From: Perkinsus olseni
Lineage: Eukaryota
Length of the DNA: 38,517 bases
Reading direction: 5' to 3'
NCBI GenBank assembly: GCA_013115125.1
Contig: JABANN010000331.1
Coordinates: 1-38,517 of the forward strand
The position numbers and the translations under genes were made by a program. Below are positions 3,001-38,363 of this stretch, one piece after another; the stretch's first letter is position 1, and every line of letters starts with the position of its first letter. Below the pieces are notes generated by a model, which had not been told where the DNA came from, ran no database searches, and was given only the letters and a program-made list of their open reading frames with translations.

Positions 3001-6000
3001 CGAACGATTCGCTCAAGTGCTCTATCGTTTTTGGAGGAATCTTTGCAGTGCGCGACCCCGCCAAGTATGAATGGAAAAAAGATCCTAACACCCTCACATC
3101 GCCGAGGATACTAGCACACCAACTTGCGACCGTTTTCATCGTCAGAAAAATATCACAGTAACCAAAAAAAGACTCCCCGGTCGAGGCAGTGCACACTGAC
3201 GATGGGCTCCTACCTTAACAAGCGTATCGATTTGCCATCTTCTCGTCGGTGCAAACTTCTTGGCCATGTTGCAGATGCAAGACACTAGGTCGGGCCGGAA
3301 CTCGGTATCAGTCACAATCAGGTAATTCAAAAACTCGTTAGTCATTTGCTGAGAAGAATATCTTGCAATCTTGCACTCTCTAGCATTTTCTCAACGCACC
3401 TTCACATTGTCCTCATTGATGAGACTGTAGGCCACATCGAGCGCCCTTCTTCGGAGGCTGATATCGGTGTCCGTCAGGCAGCCCAAAATGACGGAGCGAT
3501 GCTTCTGGACCTGCATCCGGAAGGTCCCGAGTTCAATCCCCGGTGACGACATGGAAGCGGGAATTAGGGCACCAGCACTTACCGCTCCAATATCGACTGA
3601 GACAACCCCCTTGAGTGCCTCTAGAGCAACGTACCTAAAAGATACGAAAAATCGATCAAGTGATCGATTATCGGGCCACGCCAATCTGAGCTCGCTGCGT
3701 CAAAAATACGAAGAACTCTGCTTGAACAGATCTTCAACTTACTTGACATTACTGTCCTTATGCGTGAGGAATCTTCCCAGGATATTGACACCAAGTACCC
3801 GCAGAGAAGGATCCGCTACTGGACCCACGTACACTATGGTACGCACGCACTCGTATCTACAGGTCAAGCATGCAAGATACAAATTGGGTCAGTTTTAAAG
3901 CAGACGGTCGGACCGTCACGGTCCTGTTCAAATCAGCCCTCCCTCATCATTCCAGAGGCGAGAACACACTAAAAACGAAGATCTGCCTCCAAGACCTCCG
4001 AAAGTGACACTACAGTCCTTCACAAGAAGTAAGATACCAAACTTTCCCCAACTCATCCCGACGCCTCTTACAGGACAGCATTGCCAGCGTTCTTAGCACC
4101 CTCTGTATTAGTAGCCACCTGGGCCAGCACGTCACTAACATCCTCCGCCAGAGGCTGAGTCAAGTCCGTCAACATACGCATAGTCCGAAGAATCTTAACC
4201 TGACCAAAACACCACCACGAATAATAAAACTCTTTCACTAACTCGCACGAATCCAATTTGAATCACCAAGAACATTAACTCGTTCACCACCCAACTCCTG
4301 ATTCGGCGTCCTTTGCGACACAGCCCGAGCATGGCCAGAATCTTTCAAACGCTCTCAATCGTCACCGAAAACCCCCTCTCCGTTTTCACTACCACAGCAA
4401 AAGCTTGCATCACCCACCTGGAGGAAGGGATCCGTTATTCCGCCAACATCATACTCCTGCGAGTTGCCATACCCGCTGATGGTGAGGGACCTCAACAGCT
4501 TAACCAGGGTTGGTTGGACGTAGGCTAGCTCTCGACGGTAGGCCTCGGGATTTATCTGAAAGGCATTTTAGTCGCACGATAGAGCACTAAAAAAACTCCG
4601 CTCGATAAAAATGTGAAAAAAGTCTCGTCGGCTGAATTGCGCAAAAATTGGTATTAAATACCAGGATACATCCTCCAATAGTTGTTCACGCCTCGTATAA
4701 TCGATCAACCGTTTCATTCCCCCTCGAATCAGCGGTAAAAGCTTCACAATCAAAACGGAAAAGTTATCGCCGAAAGTAAGATACCTATCCCAGAGAATAG
4801 AACCCGGATCGACCGGTACATAGGCCACACTACTAACCCGCTCAACAATAATGATTCATTCCCGACACAACTGCCATGGACTTTCTTCCGCATGCACGCT
4901 CAATCTCGTCACCTTCCCGACCATTTCCCATCGAGGACAGTAAAAACTTTACCTTCAATAAGTAGTCCATCAAACTCAATGCACTCAACAACACGCCGTG
5001 ACTTCCGGACGTTCCAGCATGTGACCTGACCGAAAAAGTAAACTCAAATTCGACCATTTGGCAAAATTTGGCACAACCCTCTCATCAGGCCAATCTCACC
5101 CGTTGGCTCCGCAGGCTCCCTCCACCAGCGGTCCCACACGCGCCGAAAACTTGTCCTCCAATTCCGTGACCTGAAGAAAAAATTTCTCATTAAATCACCG
5201 ATCTTTTCAAAATAAACTTTCTTTCCCGTAAGAAAGGATAACAAAAAAAACACGCCTGATTGAAGTAAAACTGAAAAAAAAAATTAATCTCACCGCTATG
5301 TCGCGCTCTAGCTAGTGGGAAGCGTCGCAAGCAAACGAGCTCCTCAGACAGAGGGACGAGAACATCCCAGAGGACGAAGCGCCACGAACGCTGATCCGCC
5401 GGAGCCAACGTCTGCCAAGCCGCCATCCACTGTAGAAAATGAGCCTACGGAGATGGTCACTAGCCTTGATTCCCTCGGTTCCAAGGCCCTAGGTCCCTCC
5501 GCTGTTACCGACCTATCGTCCACAATGAAGAATCCCCTAGTCATAATTATGCCTCTTAAACGACCTCCAACGTAACATGACAGGTACTATCGTAGAGCGC
5601 AAAAATTGCATGGCATTCTCAGACAAGCATTAGTCCGATACCAAAAAAAAGTCGTCCACGAAATCGCAGGATACGCGTGAAGGACATCCTTCACAATAAA
5701 TACAACAGTAATAAAGCTTCGTAAAAACCCATTACCAAAATATTTCAAGTCAAATCCTCCGGCAAACCCCAGAATCTATTACTTTCTTCACGATCCTCAG
5801 CGCACACAGCGCGGCCTTCTTCTGAATATACGGACTCGAGCTGCCAGGACCAACCAGAAGCTGCTCAACCTGACGTGAGCGTACAACATTTCATACCAAA
5901 ACTTCACCAAATTATCACCTCGCGACTCAGCGACATGCACATTTCTGTTGACCCGATGTTGGCCAGGGCGCACAGGGCCAAACCCGTAACATATTGATTC

Positions 6001-7590
6001 TGAAAAGAAAAAAAATATGACACAAAAATCCGTGAAAATCCCTCTTCAACCTAAAATACGCAAAGAGTTCCTCCCCACCCGTATGAACTCATTCTCAGAC
6101 TCACGAGAACAGATTCGACCTGCCGAATCGACAGAAAAACCAAAAACGCCGTGCTCGCAATGCTCAGCTTCTCTCAACATTCCGAAATCAAAACGGAAAT
6201 AGAGCTGGGCAACCGTACTGGGGTCGAGGAAAGTACGGTACGGAGTAGGTTTCAAACTGTCAACCTAGTATGGGTACGGTGAATCAGTACGTATTAACTA
6301 TATTAAACAATGCATACGTGTATTGAATTACGCCGTACTTCAAGTACGGCGTACTAGTACGGTACTTGGGAACCGCTGCGACGGGTAGTACGGTTACGAA
6401 GCCGTACTCGTACCCGTACCGTACTCCGTACTACACCGTACCCGTACTGTCGCCCACCTCTAAACGGAAAATTTTCTCCCGAAATTCAAAATACACGAGA
6501 TAACATTTTTTCTGACGTACCCTTTTCAACCTAAGATACGCATGCTTCTCATCCCCACCCTGGTGAGCTAGCCTTCATAATGAAAATGGATTCGACACGT
6601 TCAACTCGGCGGTGGAAATAAGGGCACCGAGCTGACAAGCAACTCCGACCGGGAAATTTTTTGTCAAAATTCAAAAAAAAGACAAACTTTTTTCTGACAC
6701 CTCTAGCCATCTCACCTTCGAGTTCAAATCATTCTTTATGCTATTTGTAACGAGCATCAGCAACTCCGAGTTTTCGTCCAACAGCTGCGTCAACCCAAGA
6801 TACCTGACCCGAACTCCTGCGATTTGGCGGAAATGTGGTACTACCCTACCCCACTCTCTTCTCCGAAAACTTAGATGATGCGATGAGCTTTAGACAATCC
6901 ATCTGGCCGAAGTGCGTCGGGTAACCGAGCATGTGGATGTAGACCAACTTCGCCACATTCCGACTCCGATGGCTGAGGAAATGAGGCGATTTGGGGAAAA
7001 TGAGGTATCCAAAATTTCACACGAGAAAGCAGTTGACCCGATAACTGTAGAAAGGCAGAAAAGTCCGACACGCCCAATACTCAAAATACATAAACATGCT
7101 AAGATTGCGTGGCGCTGGAAAAGTGAGATGGAACTTTATTGCTGTAGATCGGTCGACTGAGATCGTAGGCGTTGGTGAATATTTGTATACCATCGAGTGG
7201 GGTATGATACTGAGATTTCAATCCTCAAATTGATTCAAGGTCGCACACCACTCAAGCAAAAAATTTTTTCCTTAAATTTGTGAATTTGAAATCGAGGATG
7301 TATATTGCATCGTTACACACACGGATACGCGCCAGTTGGTGATATGCATCTGACGAGACCGTGATAGCTAACACTCCTAATCGACGTAACACAATAAACG
7401 TGCAACGATTATTGAGTACCACCCCATGCAATCATCACGACGCTACATGAGCACACATCCCGTACTACTCCGGATCGCCATCCTTGAAGGACTGTCTGAT
7501 CATGGCACACTCCCTGGCCACCACCGCCTTCTCCTCCGACTGCGTCTTGCACGCTCGAACTTGACGGATCAACTCGCGAAGCTTCGTCAT
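1..7590 (-). CDS. AP1G1: AP-1 adaptor complex gamma subunit (gamma-adaptin), multi-exon, 3' end (rest of hinge and ear domain) outside the window
   Basis: Hand-spliced GT-AG exons (inner boundaries approximate): 7590-7469 [35 protein letters not shown]; 6972-6850 [29 protein letters not shown]; 6803-6716; 5999-5919; 5869-5783 [10 protein letters not shown]; 5170-5100; ~5025-4953; ~4555-4418 [13 protein letters not shown]; ~4199-4070 [19 protein letters not shown]; ~3855-3742; ~3634-3582; ~3510-3399; ~3348-3213 RWQIDT; ~2953-2834; ~2742-2686; ~2382-2257 [10 protein letters not shown]; ~2179-2129; ~1986-1902; ~1566-1528; ~1159-1028 VELQQRACE; ~782-658; ~501-369; 206-1. These motifs match the gamma-adaptin trunk in order. 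Confidence 0.95.
3903..3924. other. Exact 7-8-7 palindromic scar (putative hAT excision footprint, 8-mer GACGGTCC) in a gamma-adaptin intron
   Basis: gacggtc|ggaccgtc|acggtcc. Confidence 0.75.
6200..6462 (+). mobile_element. Non-autonomous hAT-like MITE (263 bp), copy 1, in gamma-adaptin intron 3
   Basis: Imperfect TIRs tagagctgggcaaccgtac / gtactgtcgcccacctcta (16/19). Perfect 8-bp TSD aacggaaa at 6192-6199 and 6463-6470. Many internal CGTAC/GTACG repeats. A second copy lies at 9898-10141. Confidence 0.9.
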
Positions 7591-8000
7591 GATAGTGATA
7601 ACAAAAGAAGAAAAACGAAGCTGTCTGATGCTGCTGAGCTTCAACCTTGCATCATTCAGAAAAAAAGATACTTTCCAAAAACATCATCTTTCCCATATAC
7701 ACTGCTCACCAACAAAATAAGAAATATTTTTCTTCGCTAAGCGAGAATCCATAGAACACTCCCACTTACTCTAAGACGGGCAGGGACGGGTCCCTCTGAG
7801 GCTTGCGATGAACTCCGGGAGGGTTCACGACGATTCGAAGCACTTCCCGCGCGCCACGAAATTATCATTATTATTGATAACCAGCTGAAACTCGACTTAG
7901 CATCATCAATGAGAAATGCTTCAACTTACAGTCTCGAAACAATCATACAAAATGTCAGGAATCTTTTTGCACGCACGCGCAAAATCTTCCCCGCGCGCAC

Positions 8001-9324: not shown

Positions 9325-9897
9325 ACGAAACTCATCGCTCCGAGCCCTTGCTTCTCTAACGATCGCTCAGCATAATTCTAGATTGCACCTCCCCCTGCAA
9401 AGTACATATCAAAGTATTCTAACATTACGAAAAAAAAGTAGACGATGAAGGTATCCCAAATTCATCAAAAAATTAGATATTTGAAAAAATACTACTTGAG
9501 AAACAACAAAAATTTATATTCGAGAAAATTACATTTATCTACATAAATGTGGACGTGCTGAAATCGGCGGTTTCAGATATTCTACTAGGGCGAGCGAGAT
9601 TCGATTTGATTTTTATATATGTTTTTTCTCCATGCTTGATAACCCCGTATGCCAAGTTTCAGACACCCAATCGCAATAAATGGCAAGAAATGAGAAAAAA
9701 TCGCGATGTGATATAATTTTGTGGAAGGGTTTATAAAAATAATTTCTGCAAAATAAAATATATATTCAATGACTATGAAACCCAAATCAAACACAAATTG
9801 ACGAATGCAGGAAAAACCTTTCCGAGCACTCCCTTCTGTAGCGGTTTCTCGGTTTGCTTCGACATAGAGCCAGCCACATGCAATCCTCTCTACGTTA

Positions 9898-10141
9898 TAG
9901 AGGTGGGCGACAGTACGGGTTCGGTCTAGTACGGGAAACGGTACGGGTACGGCTCCGAACCCGTACTATCCGTCGCAGCGGTTCCCAAGTGCCGTACTAG
10001 TACGCCGTATTTGAAGTACGGCGTAACTCAATACACGTATGCGTTGTTTAATATATTTAATACGTACCCGTATTAGGTTGGCAGTTGGGAACGTACTCCG
10101 TACCGCATTTTCCTCGACCCCAGTACGGTTGCCCAGCTCTA
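9898..10141 (-). mobile_element. hAT-like MITE, copy 2 (244 bp), inverted relative to copy 1
   Basis: Starts tagaggtgggcgacagtac and ends gtacggttgcccagctcta. Reverse-complement similar to 6200-6462. Flanks are ctacgtta (9890-9897) and ctaggtta (10142-10149), a 7/8 TSD. Confidence 0.9.
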
Positions 10142-17500: not shown

Positions 17501-20500
17501 TCCGAACAAGCCTTCAACAAGAGTTACGCGAGGCACAACCGAACTCTGAACGCTATTCACCCTAGCTGTACTCACCCATCTGTGCTGTATCCCGAGGATC
17601 CACCAGCTCTAGTGGCCACAGGGAGTTTCTTATAGAATCCATGTCGTCAGCATCATCACCATCAGTTGTCTCTGCATCGCTGACACTAGGCTCGAACTCA
17701 TGCCATGCCGTACCTAAGACGTATCCAAGGTCGACCCTAGGACTTCACAGATTGCCTCACCCGTAGCGCTCTTGTCCGTGCCCTTGCCAATGTCGACCAA
17801 CGGCGTCCCATCCCACGCAAAGCCTCTCACTCGAGCTCTCGCTTCTCTCGCCCACTTGACCCATCTCAAGCAATCAGCTCGTCTATAATGAGGCTTCCCA
17901 ACCTCACTTTCCATACCATCTCTTGCGCAAATCACCAGCGCCTTGAAGTCCGACAGCCTCAGACCACTGCGGCGATAGGCGAGCAGAGTAAAACCAATCA
18001 GTACATCGGGATGGGAGAACTCTGAAGTCGCGCTAGGCCTGTCTTTCCCCACATAAGGAACCGCCATCAACCTCCGAGATTTCGACGTCGTCGGAGTTAT
18101 CCAATCTGACGGTAGCAGTCCGTAGTCCACCAGATGCCTCTTCTCAAGAATGAAGGGTAGGATGGTCTGCAGCCACTGGCGAGCCAACAGAAGGAGCTTC
18201 ACGTCCTTATCGCCCAGCGAGTTGCATATGCCAGTCTCGTCCTCACCAAAACCGTTCAAGAAGGCCGCCAATGCACTGTCAGTAACTTGAAGGGCCACCG
18301 AGTGAAATCGGAGCCAGATGAGAGTCCACTTGCACAACCACGGCAGCAGCTGCTGTTCGTAACATCCACGGTCATGCAGCAGGAGGTGGGGTCGATCAGA
18401 AAGCCATTCGCCCTCTCTGCCCCGCCTCAAAGTCTCCTTGATACTCCCAGCGACGTCCAAGGCGTCTTTCAAATTGGCAAAGCCTAGCGTTTCGATGTCT
18501 TCAAGCAACACGCTGATTATGTGCCAAGCCAGCTTCCAGCGCAGCCCGGCGGAATCCTCAGGACTCTCCTCACTCATTGGCTCCGTCATATCGAGTGGTC
18601 GCTTCTCACCGAGAGGCCACCGGAGCTCCGACTTCAACGGGTGTAAAAGCAAATCAACCTCGTCCATCAAAATCACGCCGGCCTGGAAGACGTCAAGGAC
18701 CTTCAAACAGCGGTCGATCTCCCCTTCAATTTCGCTCCGCTCGGCGGTACTGAGCGGCTCGAGACGCTCATCAGCGCTGTGCCTTCCGATGAGTTTTTTG
18801 AAGAACCTCTTGCCCTTCCGACCAGCACTGGTGTTTGCCTTGAGAATATCGTCGTCCACCAGCCTCTGGCGCAGTTCAGCCCATTTCAACGCCACACTCT
18901 TCAACGTCTGCGGGGTCGTCACAACAACAGCCTGACGACGCTGGGCCGTCAACACCTTCCGTAGGAACTTCCCATCACAGCTATCAGATCGACCAAAGTC
19001 AAGAGTGATGACAGAGGCAGCGATGGCCGGTGACGAGTAACGACCTCGAAGGACCTCTCGCGTGAACTCCAGGAGAGACGCCGTGACACAGCAAACGACG
19101 AGCTTCTGTCTACTGCGGAAGAGGAGGCCAAGCAAGGGCAGCAGCACAGTGGTCTTGCCAGCCCCCATGATCATCTGGTGGACCATTGGCTCATCATCAG
19201 CCACGGCCTTAGTGAACTTATTCAACAGCTCCACCTGTCCTTGTCGCAGTAAAATTCCAAAGAGGAACTCGCAAGTCAGCAGCCGAGGGTCATACGCAAA
19301 TCGGCCGTTCACGACAGGACCGCAGTACATACGCCTAGCGCACAGCTCCGAAAGTGTCTTCTCATCGCCCTTCCCCTTCGCCCTCTCCGCAGACTCCAAG
19401 ACCCGTCGAAGCTGCTCAATCCGGCTGGCCACAAACATAGCTTGGGCAACCACATTAAACGCAGCCTCAGGGTCCAGCTCGGCGTCACCGGACTTCAATT
19501 GCCGTAAGATGCCCGCTCCGTCTTCAGTCACGAATAACCGGATAAGAGTACAGAAGTTGACCGAGACCTCCTGACCAGATACCATCTCAACCCGTTCTCT
19601 CGAGCCGACCGTCGCATTGGCCAGCTCCGTAGCTCTTCGTATCAAACCATCCAAAAGCTGACCATCTTCCCGTAGCCTCGTCCTCGCCTGCTCGACCACT
19701 CCCTCAACACCCTGCGTCAGGAAATAGCTCTCCTTCTCCTCTTCAATTTGCCGGAAGCTCTCAACGTCAGCCTTCATTCGAGCCACCCATTTCCTCGACA
19801 GCGGGCTTCTACAGGCCTGATGACCACCGATGTCATCCAGCAGCTCTTCCACCTTCCCAAGGTGCTGCGTGGCCGGATTCGCCTCCACGCCGCTGCCCGT
19901 ACGGACCAAGCATGCCCCGCGAACTATGTCGCCGAGCGGTCTTTCAGCGAACGCCGAAGAGACTTCATCGCAGTGGAACTCACGCTGATCACGGTCGAAG
20001 CTCTCCACGAACGGGGCGCACATCCACGGCCTTGGACAGGGCACAGAGGTCTTGGCGCGCCATGGCGATGCGAAGTGCGGTGGCATCGGTAACTTCGATA
20101 TTGCACCGCCGACCTCACGCAGCCACTTGGATTTTTGCTGCCCCAGGATGTCGAACTTGCTCAGCTTGGGTAGCGGCGGCAGGACCCTCTGCACATCAGC
20201 CGACGGCGAGTCGGATAAAGTTCTCAGCACTAAGGCAAGGCCATCGGAACCTCGAACGCACGTACGAGACAGACAGGCAGCCACAGTGTGAGGATCATCC
20301 TCATTCCAGGCCTTGAAAGACAACGCGCCGGCGAAGACCTCATAGATGAACATAAAGTGAAGTGTGTCATTCTCCACAAGATACGCCACAGCATCAGCTC
20401 CGGAAATCTCCGAGGACTCCCCAGTGGACTTCGAGTAGCCACCCAGCTTGGTCCACGACGACAGAGTGCTCGTAAGGACACCATCAACGTCACCGCGACC

Positions 20501-23500
20501 GCCGCTACTGCACCAACCATCGCCATGGTTGAAGGCGAGATTTACGTCAACAAAGGCAGCATCAAGCGACGTTCCTCGCAAGATCTTACGCCGGTTCTCG
20601 ACCTCAGGCGAGCCCGTCCCAACTGCTATGGTTTCAAGGACCGCTAATTCGTCCTCTAGGGAAACCACCGCCCCTGCCGCCACATAACGCAGCTTGGACA
20701 CGTAGTTGTGCACTAAGTCGGGTATCCCCCACGGGAAGACGGTGTCACAGTCGTCGATAAAGGGCAGCAGAGCCGCGGTCAACCTCATCTTCAAAGCGCA
20801 AGCATCGACGTGAGTATCATTGAGGAAATCAGACCGCCCGAAAATGGAAATCTGCCCAACCGTGGCCTCATCCGTGAAGATATTCATGATCATATCGGCC
20901 GCGTCAGCGTAGAGCCCCGCGAGCCACTTCATGCATAGTAGATGTACCGCGGCGCTCTGGTCCGGCGGGCTCACAAACTGCCCAGAAACATGCTGGGGAT
21001 ACACAAAATGGCCACACACAGGACTTGCACTGTGCTCGAAGAGGACCACTTCCCCACCCACAGCCGCCCGGCCAGCAGAGAGACCAGCGGAGCACAGGAT
21101 AGCTCGAGTGCCGTAGTCACCGCATAGCAGGGCCGTGGCGCCGATGAACTCCTTCAGCAGGGCTTCGGTGCTGGCCGAAATAACATCACCACGACGAGCC
21201 AGCCAGTAGTGCTCGTGCTGATCGGACACCAACTTGCCCTCGTGATTTTTGAAGGTCAACTGCAGCCTCGGAAACTCCACCAGTTCGACCTTGTCGGCCC
21301 TGCCCCAGGCCAGCACATGAGACATCCCCTCCAGCCTACTGCACAGCGCAGCCAGCGACGCTACGTCAGAATCGCCAGCGGCGAGAGACAGATTGAGTAG
21401 CTCCAACGGTGGCTCCTGGGACCCCACAATTTGACGGTAGACCCGAGCGTGAGAGCGATGCTTGTCATCATCGCCAAACTCCACTGTTAGCACCGTCGGG
21501 GGCCGATTGGGTTCCGGTCGTCTCAGCTCACCAACTAGCCAGCCTTTGTGAGCGCCGCTTTGCTGCTGCCAGAAAATGTACTTCTCTAAGAGCTGCTCAG
21601 GCAGGAGTCCCCTGAAGAACCTTCCCGGCACGAACTTCTCCACTCCCCGTTCGTCCGAGACGCTGCGAGTGATCACCAAAGATTCCTGCGGGACCACATC
21701 ATCAACCTCCCGAGGGCCAGCATATGCACTCAGCTTGCTACCCACAACGAGCGCCCTATCGTCAAGCGTAGAGGCAGGCGCATCGCCATCAATGCGACCC
21801 GCGAGTGATGCAGACTCGTCGCTGCACCAGACGAGTTGCCTGTAGGGCTGGCGGCCGTGACCAACGACATCAAAGACCATGACGAGAGGCGACGGTCGGG
21901 ATACGACAACCACATCACGAGGAGAGCCTTGATCACAAAGGCCAGACAGCAGACACCAGTCACCACTAGCAGCTTCCTCGTGCAAGCGAAGATTCTTCGG
22001 AATGAAGTCAGTCCACGTGGGTAACTCGGCAAGGAGCTGTCGAGCCCAGTGCTGTGACGAAAGCTTCTTGCCACCCAGCGCCCCCGGCGACCATTTCGGA
22101 TCGACCGTCCACCTTTGAAGATCATGCCTTGACCCAACCACACGATACCATTCTCTAAACTGGGAAGTTTCCACCTGTGCCACTTGCACGCTCTCCGCGG
22201 TGGTCCCCTCGCCGAAAACTTCAAAAAAATCGGGGAACTGCAACGCCCACTCCGGCAAGGTCCCCGGCTGGTGCTGCTTCAGCGTGAACCGTCCAAGGTT
22301 CACATTCACCGTCAAAGCTGGCGGCTGAGTGACCCTGAGCAACCACGCTGCATAGCCCTCCTTCTTGCCACTGTCCTCTCCACGGTCGCCCTCAGAGGAC
22401 TCAGACTGCGGCACAAAGACACCAGGCAAGCCACCCTGCTCGGTCCAATGCCTGTTGGTCGGCGACTCACTGTCGCTGTTGGACACCATCTTAACGACGT
22501 CCTCCAGCAAGCTACCAGCCCAGGCGCCATCCGCTTTAAGGCGGAGATAAATCGGCCGGCGGAAGAGCGTGAAGGTGTTCATGACTTCGACATTATAGAT
22601 CCCTCCCAACACGCCCGACGGGACCTCCGGTTTGCTCCAGCGATGATGCATCGACAAGTACACTTGGGCCTTCAGTACCGCACCATACACAACTCTCACC
22701 TCTTCTTCGTCCATCTCACAGCTGCTCCGCGCAGCCGCCAGAAGCAGCAAGTGCGCGTGGGCGCTGTTGGCATCCTCGTACTTGCGTTTCCGCATGCTTG
22801 ACTCGCACCATCTCGAAACGATTCGCCAAATCTTGCCAGTGAGTTTCGACCTCAAGATACTCAGACACTCCTCCATCTCTCCCCGGTCGATCTCCTCGCC
22901 ATACCACTCCTTCGCATGCTCAACGTAAATGCACACGCGTGAAACCAGCCGAGCAGCGTAGAGAATGCACCTCTGGCTTGGCGCGGTGTCCCTGCCCGTG
23001 TCTCGCTCCGCCGCAGCATCCACCAGATCCCCGACGGCGACGGCGATCTGCTTCGGGCAGTGGAGAAGTTCGTTCATCAGCAGACCATCCCGAGTGTAGG
23101 TATTTTCCACCGGGCCAGGAATCTTAAATTTTTCACTCGACGGCGGAGCGGAGGTCCATCGACCAGGCTCATACAGAGCCGCGTCCAAGACCATCTGCAA
23201 CCTAGGATTCGCCAAAGCAGCACATCTGTCCCGGTCCGAAAAGAACGCCAAGAGCAGGGGAATCCGGACATACGGCGCTGTCAGGATCGCCAACACTCGC
23301 TCCACTTGAGAAGGCGACAGCGCGCCGTCGAAATCCGGGAGGTGTTTCAAATACAGAACGTCTTCCTCCGAGTGAATTTCCTCGTCATCATCGCACAGCG
23401 TGGACGGGTCCGCCATGCTCGGCACGGAGCGGCACTTCCCTTTTCTCTTCCACTGGAAGATCATACGCCTCATCCTCCCTTTGCCAGTCTCCACCCCGGT

Positions 23501-26500
23501 GTTGTAGCCCGCGCACTGTTCCAGATTTTTCATACCAAAACCGCCAACCATAACCTTCCCCTTATCAACCCGCCACTGCAATCGGGCGTCGCTGCTGCGG
23601 TACCCCTTGGCCGAGGGACTCGGCAATTTCTCGCCGTTCGAGTTCAGCACAATTTTAGACAAGAACACCACATCCCGCAGCCAAGCCAGCTCGGGACAAT
23701 GGTCCAAGACATCCGACCTCTCGCCGGTGAGCAGCTCAGGAACGTACTCCCGACACGACGCGCCAATCCCCAGCTTCAAGCCTAGCTGCTCGATCAGCTG
23801 TGTCTCAGCCGGGCCAACCTTCACGCCAGACACGTCAAATTTGAACAGAGTCTGTCGCTCTTTCTGACCTTCAACCACAACCGATTGGAGCCCTTGGAAG
23901 TACTCCAACGCCGCAGCACGGGCACTGCACAGCTCCGGCCACAACAGCAGCGAGAAGGAGCTCTCCTCGCCAAACACTCCCGGGTCCAACACAAATGGGA
24001 GTACAGGCCCATCAGCCTTTCCACTGTAATGCTTCGCAAACAGGGATGGTGTGTCAGTAGAGACAATTCGACACAGTCGATCGGTGAGCACGACCAGCAT
24101 AGTCGCGGTCACCAGGCGTACCGCGTCAGACGCTCTATCAGAGCGACAGTCAATACTGAATGCAGCGGCAGCAAAGTGTCTCGTAAGCAGGTGGGTATAG
24201 TGTAGCAGGAAGCTTCGGTTAGCCTCAACTCTGAGCTCGGGGAGGCGCCAAAACTCCTCGTCGGTCGGCAATGGCACCACTCGGCACATCGCGCTCGCGA
24301 TCAGTGAAAAGGATGTCTGCTGTGCTTGCGGAATCTCCTCAGACTGATTTTGCAGCAGGGCAATTGACGTGACAGCGTTGTACAGGAAATCACGGAGCTG
24401 GGCAACCGACCGGATGCGTTCGCTCTGCAGCGAGCACAAGTCCACCGGAATGACGATAGCTGGCGGCCTGGCTGGGCCCGCTAGACCGTCCTCATCTTCT
24501 ATCCTGGACAAGCGGTCGAACCAAGGGAATTCTGTATTCACCTCAGAGTACCTACGAACAACGAAATCTCTCCGGACGTTGCGGAATTTCACAAAAAAAA
24601 TATTCTACATAGAATTTTGCGTCCAGAATTCCAGAAAGCCGTCAGTTTTTCCACTGCCTCGAGGTGAGGTGAATATTGCTTGCTAGCAAGCTATTATCCT
24701 GAATTCTCGGCTTCAACTCGGTCGCGTTGACACCACTGAGAATTTTACTGGGGGGGGAGGGGTATATATACTGGGTATTTATTAACCCACAGGAGACTCC
24801 CAGACAACCCCGAGAATGTCCGTATTTTTCCACCCCTCTCCACTGAACGTCCTGCTACCCCTATCTAAATGCTAATGCCAACCCTTCTCTTACTGAATAG
24901 AGCCGTCCGGAAGGCTGGGAGGTCTCCACTGCTGCTGACTCTCATCGGGGCATGCCAGCGTGGCCTCGATCGCCGCCTCTATCTTGGAAGTTTCATGCGC
25001 TATGAAGGGCGATGACCTCGAATTAGGGAACCTGCCAGCCACTACTTCTACCGACCAAGCGGAGTCACATCAATCGAAAAGAATATTCAACACTGGCCGC
25101 CTCCTGCAGTCAAGATCCCTAGGAGTGCCCAGAAGGTAGATTTCTCAGAGAGAGAATGAGAACAGCTTCCACGATGCTCGTCCAGTTTATGGGTCGAGAC
25201 CCTCAGAGACGTGTAGAATTATTCAGTAAGCACACGAATAGTGCTCGGATTGCCGGAAGCTCGCCGAGTGCGACTACTACGGACTCGTCAAGGTGTCATT
25301 ATAGGGGTTTCTTTCGATGAAAGTGACAACCAACTTGAGTTAGTGACAACAGCAATACCTCAGGTTAGTGACATGCACAGAGATCTCCCAGTGAGTCCAC
25401 CTATGAATAATCCTATCGCTATCATTAGGCTGAAGTAACCATATTACAATTCAATCTATGGGTACAATATAATTACCAGTATAATTTACTGATCCTCTCT
25501 ATATTAAGACATATACTTTTGTCCAGGACGGTCCATCCATACCCAACTTACACTTTCTTATGCTCAGCAGCATACCAGGCCAACCCCCGGCACAGCAGCC
25601 GTCGAGTACGTTGCGTCATACCCATCAAAGTTTTCCCCGGTAGAAGACTTAGCACGCACTCCCGCGTGGACACAAACGCCGTCCAGGCGGCAGTGGACTC
25701 GTCGAAGCCCTCAGGCGAAGGCAACCATCGAAGAATCTAAAAACACACAAGTGTCTCTGCGGGATAGCGAGCACGTGAGCAAACCAAGCGCGCGGCTTAC
25801 CAGGCCCCTGAAACCCCGAGCCCATCGGAGCAGACCTCTCTAGAATGGTTAGCCGCTCAGAAGCGACTCGAGTCCTCTACGCGTTGACGCCGAAAAACGA
25901 AATCTCAAAGGACCACAAATTAGAGAATATCCATCCCAGAAGGACGCTGTTTTACGACTGCCCGAGGCGTTCTTTCTGCCGAGAGGTCCGAGAGAATTGC
26001 AAAACACACGGTTTGAGGGCGCAATCATGCTCATTATACTCGACTACCAGCCATTAGAATGATTCCCTTTAAGTATTTACAACATCCCCATTCTCCTGTA
26101 GGATTCCCACAACGGCAGTGCCACTCAATACTCAGCGACCGAGCAGCCCCACACCCTCCCCGAGAATCAAGCTCACCGTGTAGAGCGCCGCTGTGCAGGT
26201 GATAGCACAGGAATTGTCCCCACCGATCGCTGGATGCAGCCACGACGCGAACTCCACCATCCCTGGGTATTTCTGACACGATGATTCTGCCTTTCCGCTG
26301 CAGGTCCGAGTCGCTTACATTCATCTGTCCCTCGATGGGCGTGTCGTTCAAAAAGGGCAATAAAGTTCCGAAAACAAACTTCGCTCCGCCTGATTTTTTC
26401 TCTGGCACTAAAAGTTGCTTGAACAGCTCGATCCAGAACGTCGTCACTTCAACCCTTTCTCTCGGGACATCGTTAAAAATGAGAGGATTCAGTCGCTGCT

Positions 26501-30434: not shown

Positions 30435-30456
30435 ACACAGAGTCTGTGTCACAGAC
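30435..30456. other. Exact 7-8-7 scar (8-mer ACACAGAC)
   Basis: acacaga|gtctgtgt|cacagac. Confidence 0.75.
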
Positions 30457-30626
30457 AGAAGAGGAGGAGCTAGGATACAGTATCCTAGCTCTTCAGTATC
30501 CTGCAAGTATCCTGGATATTTTCAACACCTTTTGCTGTGTTGAACATGGCGGAGAACCCTTCCTCCCAGGGACAGGGTGGGTAGCTGTCTCCCACTATCT
30601 TTGTGTACAGAGAGCTACTCGTTCGG

Positions 30627-30887
30627 TGGGGGGGGGGGGGGGGGCCCGCCCCCCCCCCCCCGCCCCCCCCACGGGGGGGGGGGGGTGGGGGCGGTGGTAA
30701 GAGGTATTATAAAATGTTGAGGAGAAGGATGGATGGGCGCGCCACCGGGAGAGNNNNNNNNNNTGTTTTCTCCCGGGCCCCCCCCCCCCCCCCCGGGGGG
30801 GGGGGGGCCCCCCCCCCCCCCCCCTTTTTTTCCCCCCCCCCCCCCCGGGGGGGGGGGGGGCCCCCCCCCCCCCACCCCCCCCCCCCC
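30627..30887. other. Poly-G/poly-C low-complexity sequence flanking a 10-N scaffold gap (30754-30763); probable low-quality sequence
   Basis: Long G and C homopolymer runs on both sides of the N run. Confidence 0.8.
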
Positions 30888-32209
30888 AACCGAGCCCAGA
30901 ATCTGGAGTATGGTTACCAGATGCTATCTGGCTTTATCCGGCAGATAGAGCCATCGTCTACCGTAAACCACCAGCCCCTACCTTAGTGGAGGCCTTGCTA
31001 TCGTACAAAGATTTCTGGTAGCACGTCGTGCTCGTTAGCTACAGTACCCGAGTAGCATTCCCAACTTCCCCGTCGAATATTGAGTCCAGCAGTTTTGAGT
31101 TCACGCGATTGCGTAGCAAGACAGCAGCAGCTGGCGACGGAAGAGTTTTCGAAAAGCTTGTTTGAGCTTCACAAAGATATGACTTGGATGCATTCGACTT
31201 ACGAAAATATGTTACGGGTTCAACCCAGCCATTGTCATTTCAGCTGCAGTGCGACTATTACGTAAAGATGGAGTATAGATGTATTATCCATGATCTCACT
31301 ATGGAGCCGTGATGAAATATCTACTGTATCACGCTGAAGAAAACTACAAACTTGCTGATGGGCATGATCTCTTGAAGATAGACGAACGGCAGCGATGCAC
31401 CAACGACCGCAGGACGTACGTCTGCGTGCAAGTCGACACGGACAGGAACTAGGACGCATCCATTGGAAGGCAACATCTTATGTTGTGGCACACCAGTTGT
31501 GCTGAACAGATACATATCGACCTGTATATGGTACCCAGTCGAACGAGTCGACCCACAGCTTGCTGTCCACAGATCGAAATTGCGTCAAGAGCTGTCGATA
31601 GTCACTCTACGCGACTCGCACGTTTACTATTCTCCCTCGTGTCACGCGCGGTGTCGGGTGACGTGACGACGTATGGTCATAGTGTTGTGGTTTCCAGCCA
31701 TACTGAAAGCAAGGGGCAACTTTCTCTAGTAGCTTACAGACGTGCCGGACAACCGATAGGGGAAGGGCGCAATCACTATTCCAAGTCCCTGGACTCAAGG
31801 GCGGGCGCTCCGGGAGCGAAGGGCTCTCTACTAGCATAATCCCTAACACGTAAACAGCTCGCGGGAGACGAGAGTCAATCAGAGTTACCGGCTCTCCCCC
31901 CGGCCGTCACAGCGAGACGCATACCGGCAAAGGGGTGACACCATGCCCAGAATGTTCCTAGCCGATCCGACTGGGCTATCGACCATCGTTGGTCGTCCGT
32001 GATCCAGGAACGGCATGATCAAGCCGGACATGCAGAATACAACGTATCCAACACGTCACCGTGACTGTGTCCCTCTTGTCTCCTCGTGCTTCGTCCCTCG
32101 TTGTCTCCTCGACATCTGCTGAGATGCCCCTCTGAGTGTGACCCTTATCATCATTCGTATTTCCCAAGTTGTAGTTGCCGACCTCCGAGGTTCTATTCTG
32201 AGTTGATCC

Positions 32210-32626
32210 ATGGTCTTCCCAAGAAAAGTCATCTGCGGCATCTTTCTCATGGTTCCGGTATTCAGTGGTTCTACTCCTCCATCCGGGCCCTATCATAAGG
32301 TGATCCGCGACGTCCCTGCTGTCTGCGCGCAAGCCTCCTTCAGCGATGGCCCGCTTGATAGCGTTGTATTGAGTGTGACGTGTGGTTCGGGCAAGGGCCA
32401 GAGCAGAAGTCTGACTGTCAATGAAGTGGAACCCTGGGTTTTCAAGCTCGATAATACTAGCCAGCACGACCACATCCTCTTCATCGATTTTCAGAATCTC
32501 TTCTGTCAGGGAAAGGTTGCCCTGCTGGATGATGATCTGTCTGAGTTCCAGTACGATGGCTGCACTCAGACGATGAAGACTGCCTTTGAAGGGGTCGAAT
32601 ACAATCTACAACCTGGAACCTGCTAG
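32210..32626 (+). CDS. Small secreted 4-Cys protein, paralog A (138 aa, intronless)
   Basis: Hydrophobic N-terminus, PPSGPY motif, Cys at positions shared with 33297-33736 and 36066-36482, C-terminus GVEYNLQPGTC. Confidence 0.8.
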   Translation: MVFPRKVICGIFLMVPVFSGSTPPSGPYHKVIRDVPAVCAQASFSDGPLDSVVLSVTCGSGKGQSRSLTVNEVEPWVFKLDNTSQHDHILFIDFQNLFCQGKVALLDDDLSEFQYDGCTQTMKTAFEGVEYNLQPGTC

Positions 32627-33058
32627 TGGAGCATGGTGTCCAGTCCCCGATACAATTCCCTGATACATCAGGGGAAGTCTCACGGGGAACCCTCAACCTA
32701 TTTGACACTAGTAAGCCGCTACTCAGCAGCGACTCCTTCGACCATATCAGCTCCCACATTATGCCATCATTGTTAGCGCCTAAGCTCCTTTCACAAGATA
32801 CTTTTTCTGGCAAGAAGCTCCTGCCTGGTCTCTCTTTGCGTGCGTGCACATTCTCAAATTGAGAATCTCAATCGAGGTGTTTAATCTGTTGTTGTGCGAC
32901 CTGCAGCAGCATCGTACCGCCTCTCGAGGTCTCCGTGCTGGGGCGGCTCAGCCATACTCGAGGTCAGCCGTAATAGATTTGCTAAGTATACCCCTACTCC
33001 GGCACGGTGCAAGGCACTCGCGAGTCAGTTTTTAGTTCTTTTTCGACTCGAGCACATA

Positions 33059-33080
33059 CTATGAGGCTCATAGTATGAGC
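33059..33080. other. Exact 7-8-7 scar (8-mer CTATGAGC)
   Basis: ctatgag|gctcatag|tatgagc. Confidence 0.75.
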
Positions 33081-33296
33081 CTTATGGGGTAAGCGAAGTC
33101 ATATGGCTATGTTTATGGCGTATCATTAGATATTATCACCCTTATCGACTCAACCCAAGTATTTGTTTAATTACACTCATTCACAGGGGAGCATGATTTT
33201 TGTTGTGACGATTTGGCCCGGGATAGTTAGTCTGAGAAGCTCGACATTATACTTGGGGTGATCTCGTCTAGGATCCATTATTTCTGATTTCAACTA

Positions 33297-33736
33297 ATGA
33301 TCTGCCTGAAGACCATCTGCAGTATCTCTCTCATGACTCCCGGAGTCAGACTCCGATATTCGGTCGTCCCTATCCTCCTGCCGGGTCCTACCACAAAGTG
33401 ATCGCTCAGCAGCCCATTGTTATCTGTGCGCAAATTAATTGGACCAATGACCCGGATATGGGCATCGAAGTTGCTGCTTTGTGCGGTTTAGGGATGTCCA
33501 CATCCGACGACCTGTATCTTGATGAACTGCCGCTTCTCGCTTACAAAGTTGATCCGGTCAGTGAGTACAAGCACACTGATTTCATTCGTACTATTAACTC
33601 CTTCTGCAATGGTACGGTGGCCTTGCTGAGTGACGACATGTTCAAGTTTGAGTACCACATCTCTGAGCAGACGATTGAGACCAAGTTCAGGCCTCAAGGA
33701 GTAGAGTACAATTTAACATTCGGCCTCTGCTTTTGA
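33297..33736 (+). pseudogene. Small secreted 4-Cys protein, paralog B, frameshifted by a 14-bp insertion in the signal-peptide region
   Basis: ATG at 33297 gives MICLKTICSISLMT, which aligns with paralog A. Deleting 33341-33354 restores the frame to ...PIFGRPYPPAGSYHKVIAQQ...QGVEYNLTFGLCF. The insertion forms the scar tgactcc|cggagtca|gactccg at 33334-33355. Confidence 0.85.
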
Positions 33737-34373
33737 CGCCTGGGACTCGGGCCCTCATCTGATGGGAGACCACTCGCGCCGCCCCGCATGAGCAATTTTC
33801 AATCCCTCAGGCTCTCTGATTTTCATAGTGGATAATCGTACAACATGTAAGACATTCACCAGTTAATGACCGGGCTGAGGACCGAGAGTGGTATCCTTAG
33901 TGTAGTCTCGCGAGGTTGCGCTGGATTATCTTATACTTGGTTTAGAGCACACTCGTGGGTATACATGAGTATTTCATTGGAGTGTTGGGAGGTCGTATGA
34001 TACGACTCGTGTCCCTTCTTTATATTTTCTCGCCTTTCTTCAGTTGGTGACACAGCCGAGTATAGTTGATTCACTAAACGCATTTCATACCACCTCAGCA
34101 ATACGTCCGGTTCGAGTTGTCGAGTCGTACAGTTCGAGTTCCACTAATATAGTGGCACTCTGTCATAGTGAATCTAATCCCTATCACTGCTGACAAACGA
34201 GGATCCTTGTAACTGGTGCGAGCTGCGCCCAACCATTTCTCGGCAACCAACACTGAGGAACGAGTGCTTCAGTTTTATGATAAAACTTCTATCAGATAAG
34301 ACTGAACGAGTCAATAAGGTGGGTTGACAAGGTCACCACTGCCAGCCCCCCTAGCTGGGGCTCGGCGTCAACA

Positions 34374-34395
34374 GCGCTCTTAGAGCGCCGCTCTA
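34374..34395. other. Exact 7-8-7 scar (8-mer GCGCTCTA)
   Basis: gcgctct|tagagcgc|cgctcta. Confidence 0.75.
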
Positions 34396-34668
34396 CATGC
34401 GTCCTTGTGATTCTTAACAACGACAGCTATGGAATCTTTCTATAGCTGTATGTTCAGCCAGGAATGAGACCTTTCAGATATCTCATCGGGCACTGCGCAT
34501 CTTGCGCACTCGCCGTGTGTGTTTACCAGCCCAGCGGCCCCAGCCCATTGCCGCTATTTGCTGGCTCCCCGAGATTCGAGTACGGCCGAGATGTTCAATC
34601 GTGAAGGTCGACCTGTCTGCTTTTGGCATCAGCCGAACCTTCCATGATGGCCCTTTGAGTCAAAGGGC

Positions 34669-34690
34669 CTCTCTCGGAGAGAGTCTCTCC
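34669..34690. other. Exact 7-8-7 scar (8-mer CTCTCTCC)
   Basis: ctctctc|ggagagag|tctctcc. Confidence 0.65.
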
Positions 34691-35263
34691 ACATCTCGGG
34701 ATCCGTTTCGGACCTGAGCGACTCAGGCTGAGTCTGACCTAGGTTCCCCAAGGCGACCACGCGCCACTGAATTCAAGCCGCCAAGGCTGGTTTGGTCGGG
34801 GGCCCCGACTCGGAGCGATGGTGCTGTACCAGCACCTGTAAATGGATGAAGCGAGTTGTTCTTTTTACGTAACGCGCCACTTGTCCGAAGAGGCAACACT
34901 GGCAGAACGAGGATTCAACCTGAACAGCGATAGTATTCTCGTTCGGTATTATTATAATACAGTCAATCGACCAACCGTTTCATCCAAGATCGTGATAGCA
35001 GGCGATCAGGAGACCTTTCTCGGGATGTTGGGCACACCACCGATCACAGCCGCGCCGTACCTGTACGATGATGGTCATACGCTAGCCAGTAGTACTAGCC
35101 CAGTACGCGTGCAGGCTGCAGTTGTGTGATTCGCGCCTAGCGTTTCACGTGCAATGTGTGTAAAATGACGCGTAGTGTAGTGCGTGATGCGTGTTACGCT
35201 AGCGTAACACGCTTGCGTCACGCAACAGGGGTGCATCTCCAGTGCGTCCGACAATGTCGGGCC

Positions 35264-35285
35264 GACATCGTCGATGTCACATCGA
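35264..35285. other. Exact 7-8-7 scar (8-mer GACATCGA)
   Basis: gacatcg|tcgatgtc|acatcga. Confidence 0.75.
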
Positions 35286-36065
35286 CTCAGGGTCTGGCCC
35301 GGGCGACCGGACGCCCCGCCGGTGACCATCATTTGTACTATTGTGACGACTATTCACCCTGCTTCATTCGTTGCAGGCTAACTACCTTTATGTACCGGAT
35401 ACTATCTGGTATGATCCTGCGCCCTGCACTCGCGTGTACGACTATGCGCGCTAGGTTGCGTCACTGATCACGCTGCTCCCAGTCTTAAAGCCGCGGCCTA
35501 CCTCTCATCGATATCAAGGCGAAGTAGGTCGTCAAACAGTGTAGCAGATCAGGTTCGTGACTACTGCATTATGTAGAGTGAAAGCCATCACCGCGGCTTA
35601 CTAACTACCTGTAGCTCGTATCATTACGCGGCTCGCACTCACGTGCATGAGAACGTGTTATAGATTACGCTGTAGATCGCCTTCTCGCTCTTAATCCATT
35701 CGAGTTCAGATTTCGGGTTTCTTCGAGCCCCGTCTCAAATATAGACACTGTACTGCATTATTGTGCTCTGCTGTTCTTCCTATAGCATACTACATCTGGT
35801 ACTGTAAACCACTGCAAGAGTTGCCTTCACGTTATCTGTTCTACTCACTCAATGCGTACGTGCTTTCGTGCGTGGCCCCGATGACGCAATAGATCTCGCT
35901 GTAGATTAATTATCCAGGATGACCCTTCACGTCATAGCTCCGCTGGGGTTGGATGCCCCCTCAACCCGAAGCGCAGAGCCACTCAGCCTGAGTTTGATCA
36001 TGACCTTCACCCAAATCTATCTATGCCCTCATCAGCCTTGTTGCGAATACTGCTCCGTTCAAATA

Positions 36066-36482
36066 ATGTTCATCAAGAACACAGTCAGCTACATCGCCGC
36101 CGCTCTGTTGACGGCGCTGGCTCGCCCCGGCCCTCCGACTGGGATCTATTATGCTAACATCAATCCGCAGGGTACAGTCTGTGTTGAAGTCACTTGGGTC
36201 CCTGACCCTGACAAGGATGTGAGGCTTGAAGTGAGGTGTGGTGCACGCTCGAAGGTGAGCAGGGATCTGACGGTTGATGAAGGGCCGCCGTTCGTCTATA
36301 AGATTGACACTCATAGCGAACCTGTCCACAGTTCCTTCCGCCAAGCGGCGAATGCCGTTTGTCTTGAGTTGGCGACCATGCAGGCGCATGATCTCTACAA
36401 GTTCGTTTACAACAGGGATAGCAATACCATAGTAACTGCGTTTCAAGCGCAGGGAGTCGAGCTGAGACCTGGGCACTGCTGA
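36066..36482 (+). CDS. Small secreted 4-Cys protein, paralog C (138 aa, intronless)
   Basis: ATG at 36066 gives MFIKNTVSYIAAALLTALARPGPPTGIYY...QGVELRPGHC. Same length and Cys spacing as paralog A. The longer ORF start at 35919 has no counterpart in the paralogs. Confidence 0.8.
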   Translation: MFIKNTVSYIAAALLTALARPGPPTGIYYANINPQGTVCVEVTWVPDPDKDVRLEVRCGARSKVSRDLTVDEGPPFVYKIDTHSEPVHSSFRQAANAVCLELATMQAHDLYKFVYNRDSNTIVTAFQAQGVELRPGHC

Positions 36483-36613: not shown

Positions 36614-36653
36614 TTCTCGGGCCGAGAATCTCGGCTCAGCGAGCCGGGCTCGC
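36614..36653. other. Two overlapping 7-8-7 scars (TTCTCGGC exact; CGGCTCGC with 1 mismatch)
   Basis: ttctcgg|gccgagaa|tctcggc at 36614-36635 and cggctca|gcgagccg|ggctcgc at 36632-36653. Confidence 0.75.
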
Positions 36654-37055
36654 TCAAGATCTCTATGCTTGCAGGGCTGCCGTGCAAGAATCTGCGTCGT
36701 ATCAGTGTCATATCACATTCAACAATATTGAGGAAGTCTTTTGCTCCCACCCAGCACCTTGCGGTTGCGTTACATGTCCCGGGCCATCGCCGATCCTCTC
36801 AACTTCAGAGTCCTAAGAGCCGGCACATCCATCACCCGTCCCGTTCTCCACAGCCGATTCGGCTGAGCCAAATGCCACTTTGAAGTTTTTATTGCGCGAG
36901 TCACTCCGCCGTGACTCTCCGCGTCAGTTTATGCGCACCCTGGTTCCCAGCGAGAAATTTTATCTGCATTTTACTTCAGAAGTTTTTCAGACTCAGCTGC
37001 TTTCAGCATGTATCAACCTCTGGCAAAACTCAATGATTGATGAACTACTCCAACG

Positions 37056-37616
37056 CAGGATGTACACATCCAGGAAATTTCCGAGCCGTCGGAAATTTCA
37101 GCCAGTCCTCAGAGGGAATTTCCTGAAATTTCCGTTTCCGTTGAAATGGGGGAAAATGTCCGAATTTCCTCCTTGATTTTCTTGAAACTTCTCCGGCAAT
37201 GTCGATGTGACATTGTCACATCGCCCTTGATTCATCAGTGCGTCAGTCGCCTAATAATACTGATAGACTATTAGAAATAGTCTATCAGTAATAATCTATT
37301 AGCGATACTCTATTAGTTGGGATCAAATCGATCATCTGGGCGCGTGCTCAGCACATCCTTCACTTCTATGTTTGAGGGGATTTCAATTTGACAGGTCGAA
37401 GCTTCCACGTTTAAAGGTTTGGAACGTCGACGCATTAGCATATCAGGCCGGACACGTCACAACGCTACATTGCAAATCTGGCGAAATAAGGCTGGAACAG
37501 CGAGCATTCGCGAATTTCAGATTTTTTCGAAATTTTCGCCTTCGCCGGAAATTTCCGAAATACACTTCGGAAATTTCAATGAAATTTCCGCCGTGGAAAT
37601 CCATGTGCACACCCTG
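37056..37616. mobile_element. Putative non-autonomous hAT-like element (561 bp) with CAGG TIRs and GAAATTTC subterminal repeats
   Basis: Left end caggatgtacacat versus reverse complement of the right end cagggtgtgcacat (12/14). GAAATTTC(C)-type palindromes cluster near both ends (about 37072-37170 and 37512-37590). No intact direct TSD, but see findings. Confidence 0.6.
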
Positions 37617-37838
37617 TTGGAGTCCAACATTGGAGTCCAATGGCGAGTGATTCCAAAGCCAACGCTAAACCAACCATCGACACGATGCGCTCCCTTCCCG
37701 ACCGACACAAAATTTATGTTAGTCACTGAGCACTCTATATCCGCATTCGCATTCGATTCGAATAACTCGAGAAACAGAAGAGCTTTCTCGAGGAAGTCTA
37801 ACTTGAGTACGACGAAGTGGCAACTACCAGGATTCGCA

Positions 37839-37860
37839 CTCTCCGTCGGAGAGTCTCCGA
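37839..37860. other. Exact 7-8-7 scar (8-mer CTCTCCGA)
   Basis: ctctccg|tcggagag|tctccga. Confidence 0.75.
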
Positions 37861-38231: not shown

Positions 38232-38363
38232 CCCGGAGCCTCCGGGCCGGAGGTCCCAGTACTCAAGGCTCGTCATTTTGCTTGTGAAATTCACAATGTG
38301 AATTGTTTAGTGAATCTGAAACATTGCCGGACGTGCCCCAGCTCCGGTGACCGGAGTCCGGTC
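38232..38363. other. Cluster of three exact 7-8-7 scars
   Basis: cccggag|cctccggg|ccggagg (38232-38253); ttgtgaa|attcacaa|tgtgaat (38282-38303); ctccggt|gaccggag|tccggtc (38342-38363). Confidence 0.8.

Follow-up and report, generated by a model that had tools for sequence, protein, structure and literature searches.

The window, by which we mean the whole stretch of 38,517 nt of Perkinsus olseni DNA that was analyzed, contains three tandem genes on the plus strand, paralogs A, B and C, encoding related proteins of about 138 aa (Table 1). P. olseni proteins provided the best database matches for paralog A (86% identity) and for paralog B (94% and 78% identity). A search with a family profile retrieved 40 cluster representatives at E ≤ 0.001, including 16 at E ≤ 1e-10, most of them 110-145 aa long. 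We looked up ten of these representatives: six came from P. olseni, two from P. chesapeaki and one from P. marinus, and one of the ten bears the automatic UniRef name 'Secreted protein'. The alignment revealed a hydrophobic N-terminus, a PPxGxY motif and conserved cysteines as traits of the family, while the Pfam scan of the window ORFs returned no family match for its members.

The AlphaFold model of paralog A is of high confidence (pLDDT 90.1, pTM 0.78) and consists of nine strands and one helix. Foldseek returned no match to this model at E ≤ 0.001; the best was 5byp_A (E 6.7e-3, TM 0.42/0.47), and lipocalin-2 appeared in lower rows with a TM of ~0.3. VIA-align gave a best Z of 7.7 (rmsd 2.9, 84 aligned), with no chain at Z ≥ 8. 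The model weakly resembles small lipocalin- or avidin-like (calycin-like) barrels and, since the matches are weak, we regard this fold class as suggestive. The family profile also matched five large proteins (P0031, P0033, P0037, P0042 and P0045; 580 to 5009 aa), each in 4 to 7 stretches that correspond to profile positions 25-84. It is therefore possible that large proteins, too, use the first half of the putative barrel as a repeat module.

Contigs from four sequencing samples were compared with the window: X1 (a source-like run), X7 (a run from another study), X8 and X9. None of the listed runs is recorded as RNA, and to treat X7 as RNA is a guess only; its depth over paralog B (~7) equals that over the neighboring non-coding DNA. 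In paralog A, an X7 contig (depth 3.1) joins 32297 to 32508, and the 210 nt skipped (32300-32509) begin with GT and end with AG if shifted by 2. This skip is in frame and would drop 70 codons from paralog A. Database models read through the region, and the skip may represent an intron or an alternative form. An X7 contig also skips 56 nt at 34916-34971, whose ends, CT..AC, read as GT..AG on the minus strand. X7 depth at 34765-35015 is 222, compared with ~5 nearby, which suggests, if the guess about X7 is right, a small, highly represented, spliced minus-strand transcript without a Pfam match.

The window has several other features. A 2296-aa open frame on the minus strand (17714-24604) matches DUF3638, DUF3645 and, weakly, the ResIII helicase domain, and represents a large helicase-like gene. 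Long alternating poly-G and poly-C runs surround a 10-N gap (30754-30763) at 30618-30894; this could reflect a difficulty in the assembly or a homopolymer block of an unusual kind. Finally, a repeated sequence lies at 35518-35768, where summed contig depth reaches 458 to 1406 in all DNA runs, compared with ~80.

Table 1 Coordinates of the paralogs, scars and candidate elements in the window
Feature	Position	Strand	Remarks
Paralog A	32210..32626	+	intact, 138 aa; outgroup at the scar site, with TGGTTCCG in place of TGACTCCG
Paralog B	33297..33736	+	small secreted-type protein gene; frameshift at codon 15, inside the signal-peptide-like N-terminus
Paralog C	36066..36482	+	intact in the window; without the 14-nt insert at the paralog B scar site
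7-8-7 scar in paralog B	33334..33355	.	TGACTCC + CGGAGTCA + GACTCCG; 14 nt over the 8-mer TGACTCCG
Unscarred 8-mer TTTACAAC in paralog C	36406..36413	+	14 extra nt here in X8 and X9 contigs
Miniature inverted-repeat element, 263 bp	6200..6462	+	ends TAGAGCTGGGCAACCGTAC / revcomp TAGAGGTGGGCGACAGTAC; perfect 8-bp target duplication AACGGAAA/AACGGAAA
Second copy of this element, opposite orientation	9898..10141	-	8-bp flanks TAACCTAG / TAACGTAG, 7/8 identical
Exact scar	3903..3924	.	unit GACGGTCC; sole exact scar of the first 30 kb
Exact scar	30435..30456	.	unit ACACAGAC
Exact scar	32851..32872	.	unit TTCTCAAT
Exact scar	33059..33080	.	unit CTATGAGC; between paralogs A and B; 14 nt missing in X8 and X9
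Exact scar	34374..34395	.	unit GCGCTCTA
Exact scar	34669..34690	.	unit CTCTCTCC
Exact scar	35264..35285	.	unit GACATCGA; overlaps the one-mismatch scar 35247-35268
Exact scar	36614..36635	.	unit TTCTCGGC; overlaps the one-mismatch scar 36632-36653
Exact scar	37839..37860	.	unit CTCTCCGA
Exact scar	38232..38253	.	unit CCCGGAGG
Exact scar	38282..38303	.	unit TTGTGAAT
Exact scar	38342..38363	.	unit CTCCGGTC; 14 nt missing in X8 and X9

A 14-nt gain that breaks paralog B

Paralog B reads ctc atg act cc[cggagtcagactcc]g ata ttc across the site of interest. The 22-mer TGACTCCCGGAGTCAGACTCCG found there starts with the first 7 bases of TGACTCCG, continues with its full reverse complement and finishes with its last 7 bases, a design that we refer to as a 7-8-7 scar. 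This 22-mer matches the window only once, even with up to three mismatches allowed. Its counterpart in paralog A, CTCATGGTTCCGGTATTC at 32246-32263 (one match in the window; none in 100 shuffles), lacks the additional bases, and the MAFFT alignment gives paralog A a gap of 14 columns at precisely the position of the scar. The original prediction had described the scar as a 14-bp insertion that turned an 8-mer into a 22-mer, and the sequence reads as described. The scar interior contains direct repeats of 6-7 nt, spaced 14 nt apart. Folded as single-stranded DNA, the scar reached -6.8 kcal/mol (z -1.78), which is unremarkable.

A length of 14 nt cannot be divided by 3; the insertion therefore shifts the frame, and translation from the ATG at 33297 ends after 34 residues. 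From 33356 onwards, 126 residues can be read without interruption before the stop at 33734-33736. When the two pieces were translated separately, they met end to end on P0003 and P0004, two P. olseni proteins that are intact natural alleles of paralog B and read ...SLMTPIFGRPYPP... across the site. The alignment of 38 family sequences places the conserved PPxGxY motif immediately 3' of the scar, and the frame is colinear with the family only in the 8-mer state. The premature stop is the result of the scar; we found no second disabling lesion in paralog B, in agreement with the earlier claim that the scar alone breaks the frame. A 6-nt difference at 33689 was considered as a lesion and rejected: it is variable and in frame, it agrees with P0003 and P0004, and paralog C has two extra residues at the same position. 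The scarred allele of paralog B would thus be a frameshift null and a nascent unitary pseudogene, with its loss of function predicted from the reading frame.

We then asked the contigs of the four samples for the state of this site. The X8 contig (60/60 depth) and the X9 contig (66.7/66.7 depth), one in each sample, lack the 14 nt at 33335. The 14 nt are kept, with no differences from the window, in the X1 contig spanning 31126-36485 and in the X7 contig spanning 33155-33690. Colinearity of the X9 contig with the window (33214-34628) shows it to be the same locus and no distant copy. Independent data thus support the assembly, and the insert is strain-variable.

These observations confirmed that the 14 nt in paralog B are a derived, strain-level gain. 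Three lines establish the direction: the outgroup paralogs A and C, the open frame of the 8-mer state and the polymorphism between strains. The prediction that the 8-mer gave rise to the 22-mer is therefore borne out, and the alleles without the 14 bp, which it had proposed to look for, are present both in the X8 and X9 contigs and in P0003 and P0004. The event had also been called recent. This holds in the sense that the insert is strain-variable, with a limit: divergence between the window and the haplotypes without the scar is ~1.5% over paralog B (7/468 letters) and ~9% over paralog A (39/435), so that 'recent' means after these haplotypes split.

Paralog C provides the reciprocal case. 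In X8 (88.2/88.2 depth) and X9 (23.4/23.4 depth), 14 extra nt are inserted behind 36407, and together with the window flanks they form a 7-8-7 scar with one mismatch. In the frame of paralog C this insert reads V-Y-K-L and then a stop, with the codons worked out by hand. Two P. olseni orthologs of paralog C, P0007 and P0046, are 117 aa long and end in ...KFVYKL; they come from three locus-tag series. The claim that such a scar always shifts the frame thus extends to a second gene, which is shortened in other strains. As read from the sequences, the damage is reciprocal: paralog B is broken here and whole elsewhere, and paralog C is whole here and cut short elsewhere.

Number, design and position of the scars in the window

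We searched the window for exact 22-mers of the form W[1-7] + revcomp(W) + W[2-8] and found 13 in 38.5 kb, versus a mean of 0 in 100 dinucleotide shuffles (Table 1). With up to one mismatch the number was 21 (0.01 in the shuffles), and with up to two mismatches 27 (0.2). Among unit lengths of 5-11 and offsets of 0-2 (five shuffles), the combination of unit 8 and offset 1 was the sole outlier, with 13 matches versus 0. The other combinations gave 0-2 matches each, with the exception of unit 5 at offset 2 (17 versus 9.6). Units of 6, 7, 9, 10 and 11 at offset 1 gave none, and neither did unit 8 at offsets 0 and 2. Footprint variants with 0-3 palindromic nucleotides were weakly enriched at most (8 versus 2.2 and 8 versus 1.6; 20 shuffles). 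The 13 units show a weak bias towards a pyrimidine at position 2 and a purine at position 7 (18/26 after symmetrisation), a sample too small to build on.

The last 8.5 kb, a region that is gene-poor besides the small paralogs, holds 12 of the 13 exact scars and eight one-mismatch scars; the first 30 kb, where the large genes are located, has a single exact scar. Overlapping pairs occur at 35247-35285 and at 36614-36653, and in both the target 8-mer of the later event overlaps the earlier scar at its end. To judge from these sequences, scarred spots seem to be hit repeatedly. Strain variation extends beyond paralogs B and C: among the differences listed, those at the scars 33059 and 38342 consist of the absence of the 14 nt from X8 and X9. 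A further 14-nt strain difference, at 34230-34243, was rejected as a scar; it sits between two CAACCA direct repeats.

Candidate elements and the origin of the scars

The window contains two small inverted-repeat elements associated with 8-bp target duplications (Table 1). Both have TAGAG... inverted ends and many subterminal GTACGG repeats, and the 8-bp duplication together with the terminal consensus makes them candidate hAT elements. They flank a CDC50/LEM3-family gene (8001-9155, minus strand) in opposite orientation, and so delimit a 3.9-kb inverted-repeat structure (6200-10141). A 19-nt terminus of the element matched 31 metagenome loci once each, but BLAST found nothing past 19-21 nt; these loci are thus chance matches and were rejected as relatives of the element. 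A third element, of 587 bp (37049-37635), has the inverted ends CAGGATGT... / revcomp CAGGGTGT... and many GGAAATTTCC motifs, lies in a region of high read depth and is missing from the X8 and X9 contigs, which join 37048 to 37636. We did not count it as hAT-type: its junctions share 5 nt only (TCCAA). No transposase domain was detected by Pfam in 86 window ORFs (77 of the 115 ORFs of at least 85 aa and nine others, five of which belong to the same 115); the other 33 of the 115 are frames overlapping the poly-G/C tract and the large genes, two in number.

The geometry of the paralog B scar suggests how it may have formed. Its left 15 nt (TGACTCC-C-GGAGTCA) and its right 15 nt (CGGAGTC-A-GACTCCG) are odd palindromes, centered on C and A. 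These are the complements of G and T, the last and the first base of TGACTCCG. The Hermes transposase, which belongs to the hAT superfamily, nicks the DNA one base into the flank. We hypothesize that an element, probably small and non-autonomous like the two in the window, inserted at TGACTCCG (codons 13-15) and duplicated 8 bp. At excision, the transposase would nick one base into each flank and both flanks would be sealed as hairpins. If these hairpins were opened at least 8 nt from the tip, the reverse complement of the duplicated 8-mer would be exposed at both ends, and the two 8-nt tails, being mutually complementary, could anneal and be ligated to give 7 + 8 + 7 bases. Hairpin opening followed by tail annealing would explain why the unit is 8 nt long and why it is offset by 1. 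The uniformity of the scar further suggests an unusual repair bias, with a long hairpin opening and then a join at 8 nt of microhomology. If Perkinsus had lost classical end joining, this would account for so uniform a microhomology join.

No element allele was seen at the paralog B site, and no loose contig end among those listed begins with an element terminus. As no TIR element is visible there, we infer excision from the geometry of the scar, and the former element, the hairpin chemistry and the repair route are likewise reconstructions. Our preferred reading, to which we give a probability of about 0.72, is that a single 14-nt footprint, left by the excision of a hAT-like cut-and-paste element, has turned paralog B, whose family of small secreted-type beta-barrel proteins extends throughout Perkinsus, into a strain-specific null allele. 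It had been predicted that excision cannot restore gene function. This stands for the canonical scar only: an exact excision would be traceless, and a later exact deletion could occur between the 6-7-nt direct repeats within the scar.

Could the 14 nt have arisen without any transposon? In such a scenario, a repair or replication error, in which a break or a stalled fork folds back and switches template, would generate a forward-reverse-forward micro-triplication. In its favor, no element is seen at the paralog B site, the window ORFs scanned include no transposase and the outcome is unusually uniform beside known footprints. Since this uniformity exceeds that published for Ac/Ds or rice, and variants with short palindromes are weak, a dedicated transposon-independent process may be involved. 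However, template switching offers no reason for exactly 8 nt and a 1-nt offset in all 13 exact cases, nor for the lack of scars with units of 6, 7, 9, 10 or 11 at offset 1, and the same window holds elements that make 8-bp duplications; we consider this origin unlikely. It is also quite unlikely that the scar is the excision footprint of another superfamily with 8-bp duplications (Mutator-like, P or Merlin-like) and not of hAT. Muta1 is described as making target duplications of 8 or 9 bp (PMC5225508), and the account of Merlin mentions 8-9-bp duplications and Merlin-related ORFs in P. marinus (PMC8101967). Yet the same account gives Merlin ends a conserved terminal GG, versus the TAGAG start of the window elements (PMC8101967), the window contains none of the 9-nt scars that Muta1 might leave, and an odd palindrome centered on a complement is the signature given for Ac/Ds (PMC5873905). 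For these reasons a hAT-like element appears, on sequence grounds, to be the best fit for both the 8-bp duplications and the scars.

Two further alternatives bear on the direction of change and on its effect. If the 22-mer were ancestral, the 8-mer alleles would have arisen via deletion between short direct repeats, and the 6-7-nt repeats spaced 14 nt apart make an exact 14-nt deletion mechanically possible. Against this, the outgroup paralogs A and C are without the insert, and only the 8-mer state is open and colinear with the family, whereas the 22-mer state stops after 34 codons. We regard this reversal as hardly tenable. Very improbable, too, is that paralog B still yields a working protein because the scar is spliced out, the ribosome shifts frame or another start codon is used. 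The downstream frame is indeed open from 33272 and includes an internal ATG at 33458, but it has no ATG 5' of the scar, and a product from 33458 would include neither the signal-peptide-like N-terminus nor the first of the conserved cysteines. Moreover, the sole X7 contig over the site keeps the 14 nt, X7 being RNA by guess only.

Known footprints and what the scars mean for Perkinsus

Read as the footprint of a hAT-type excision that causes a frameshift null mutation, the paralog B scar belongs to a known class of events. In the description of Ac/Ds footprints, the hallmark is a palindrome centered on the complement of the base that adjoins the element (PMC5873905). The window scars resemble the footprints reported for Ac/Ds and other hAT elements in maize, Arabidopsis, yeast and Candida in their 8-bp duplicated target, palindromic additions and microhomology join, and hairpins at the flanks, as in V(D)J recombination, would explain the design of both (PMC5873905, PMC1978519). 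Ac/Ds footprints are mixed: 28 types are given for 128 events in Candida, with arms of up to 3 nt, and in yeast the arms can reach 20 nt (PMC5873905). In contrast, one outcome dominates in the window, with a complete 8-nt inverted copy common to both ends, and it is known here from the scars alone.

A comparison of Asian and African rice, as reported, counted 8 of 94 excisions as 'perfect', while most had deletions or filler DNA (PMC4423477). As with these excision polymorphisms, the presence or absence of a scar between close genomes would be a record of recent DNA-transposon activity (PMC4423477). The same source names nDart (PMC4423477), a small non-autonomous hAT element of rice. The window elements are like nDart in being short and in their terminal inverted repeats, subterminal repeats and 8-bp duplication, with the superfamily putative. 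Unlike in rice, the scars of the Perkinsus window are uniform and dense, with 12 exact ones in the last 8.5 kb; uniformity and density are the unusual features of these scars among known footprints.

In maize and snapdragon, the excision of elements from exons leaves stable null or altered alleles, and a footprint whose length is not a multiple of three is a permanent frameshift. Unlike those cases, which were followed genetically from known insertions, paralog B is a case in which we infer the insertion stage. Our literature search found no paper that pairs Perkinsus with excision footprints and, in the portions of text that it returned, none on hAT elements in Perkinsus; a wider search on repeat content yielded nothing specific.

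The 7-8-7 motifs that are abundant in the genome represent 14-nt gains rather than conserved signals. Two members of one tandem secreted-protein family are predicted to be knocked out in different strains, and cut-and-paste traffic would therefore be a live source of gene loss and of strain differences in Perkinsus, a parasite of importance for shellfish farming. This analysis adds a clear argument on polarity, the predicted reciprocal knock-outs of two paralogs and a candidate type of element, and the scars can serve as simple presence/absence markers for strain typing. A more far-reaching reading, which we think is unlikely to hold, is that a hAT-like system, together with a repair route that nearly always gives the same 14-nt footprint, often switches tandem secreted-protein genes off, and does so differently from strain to strain, with paralog B off here and paralog C off in other strains. 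Such a switch could even be reversible, via exact deletion between the direct repeats of the scar itself. If this were true, the scars would represent a major, so far undescribed source of variation in the secreted repertoire of Perkinsus and a ready-made strain marker.
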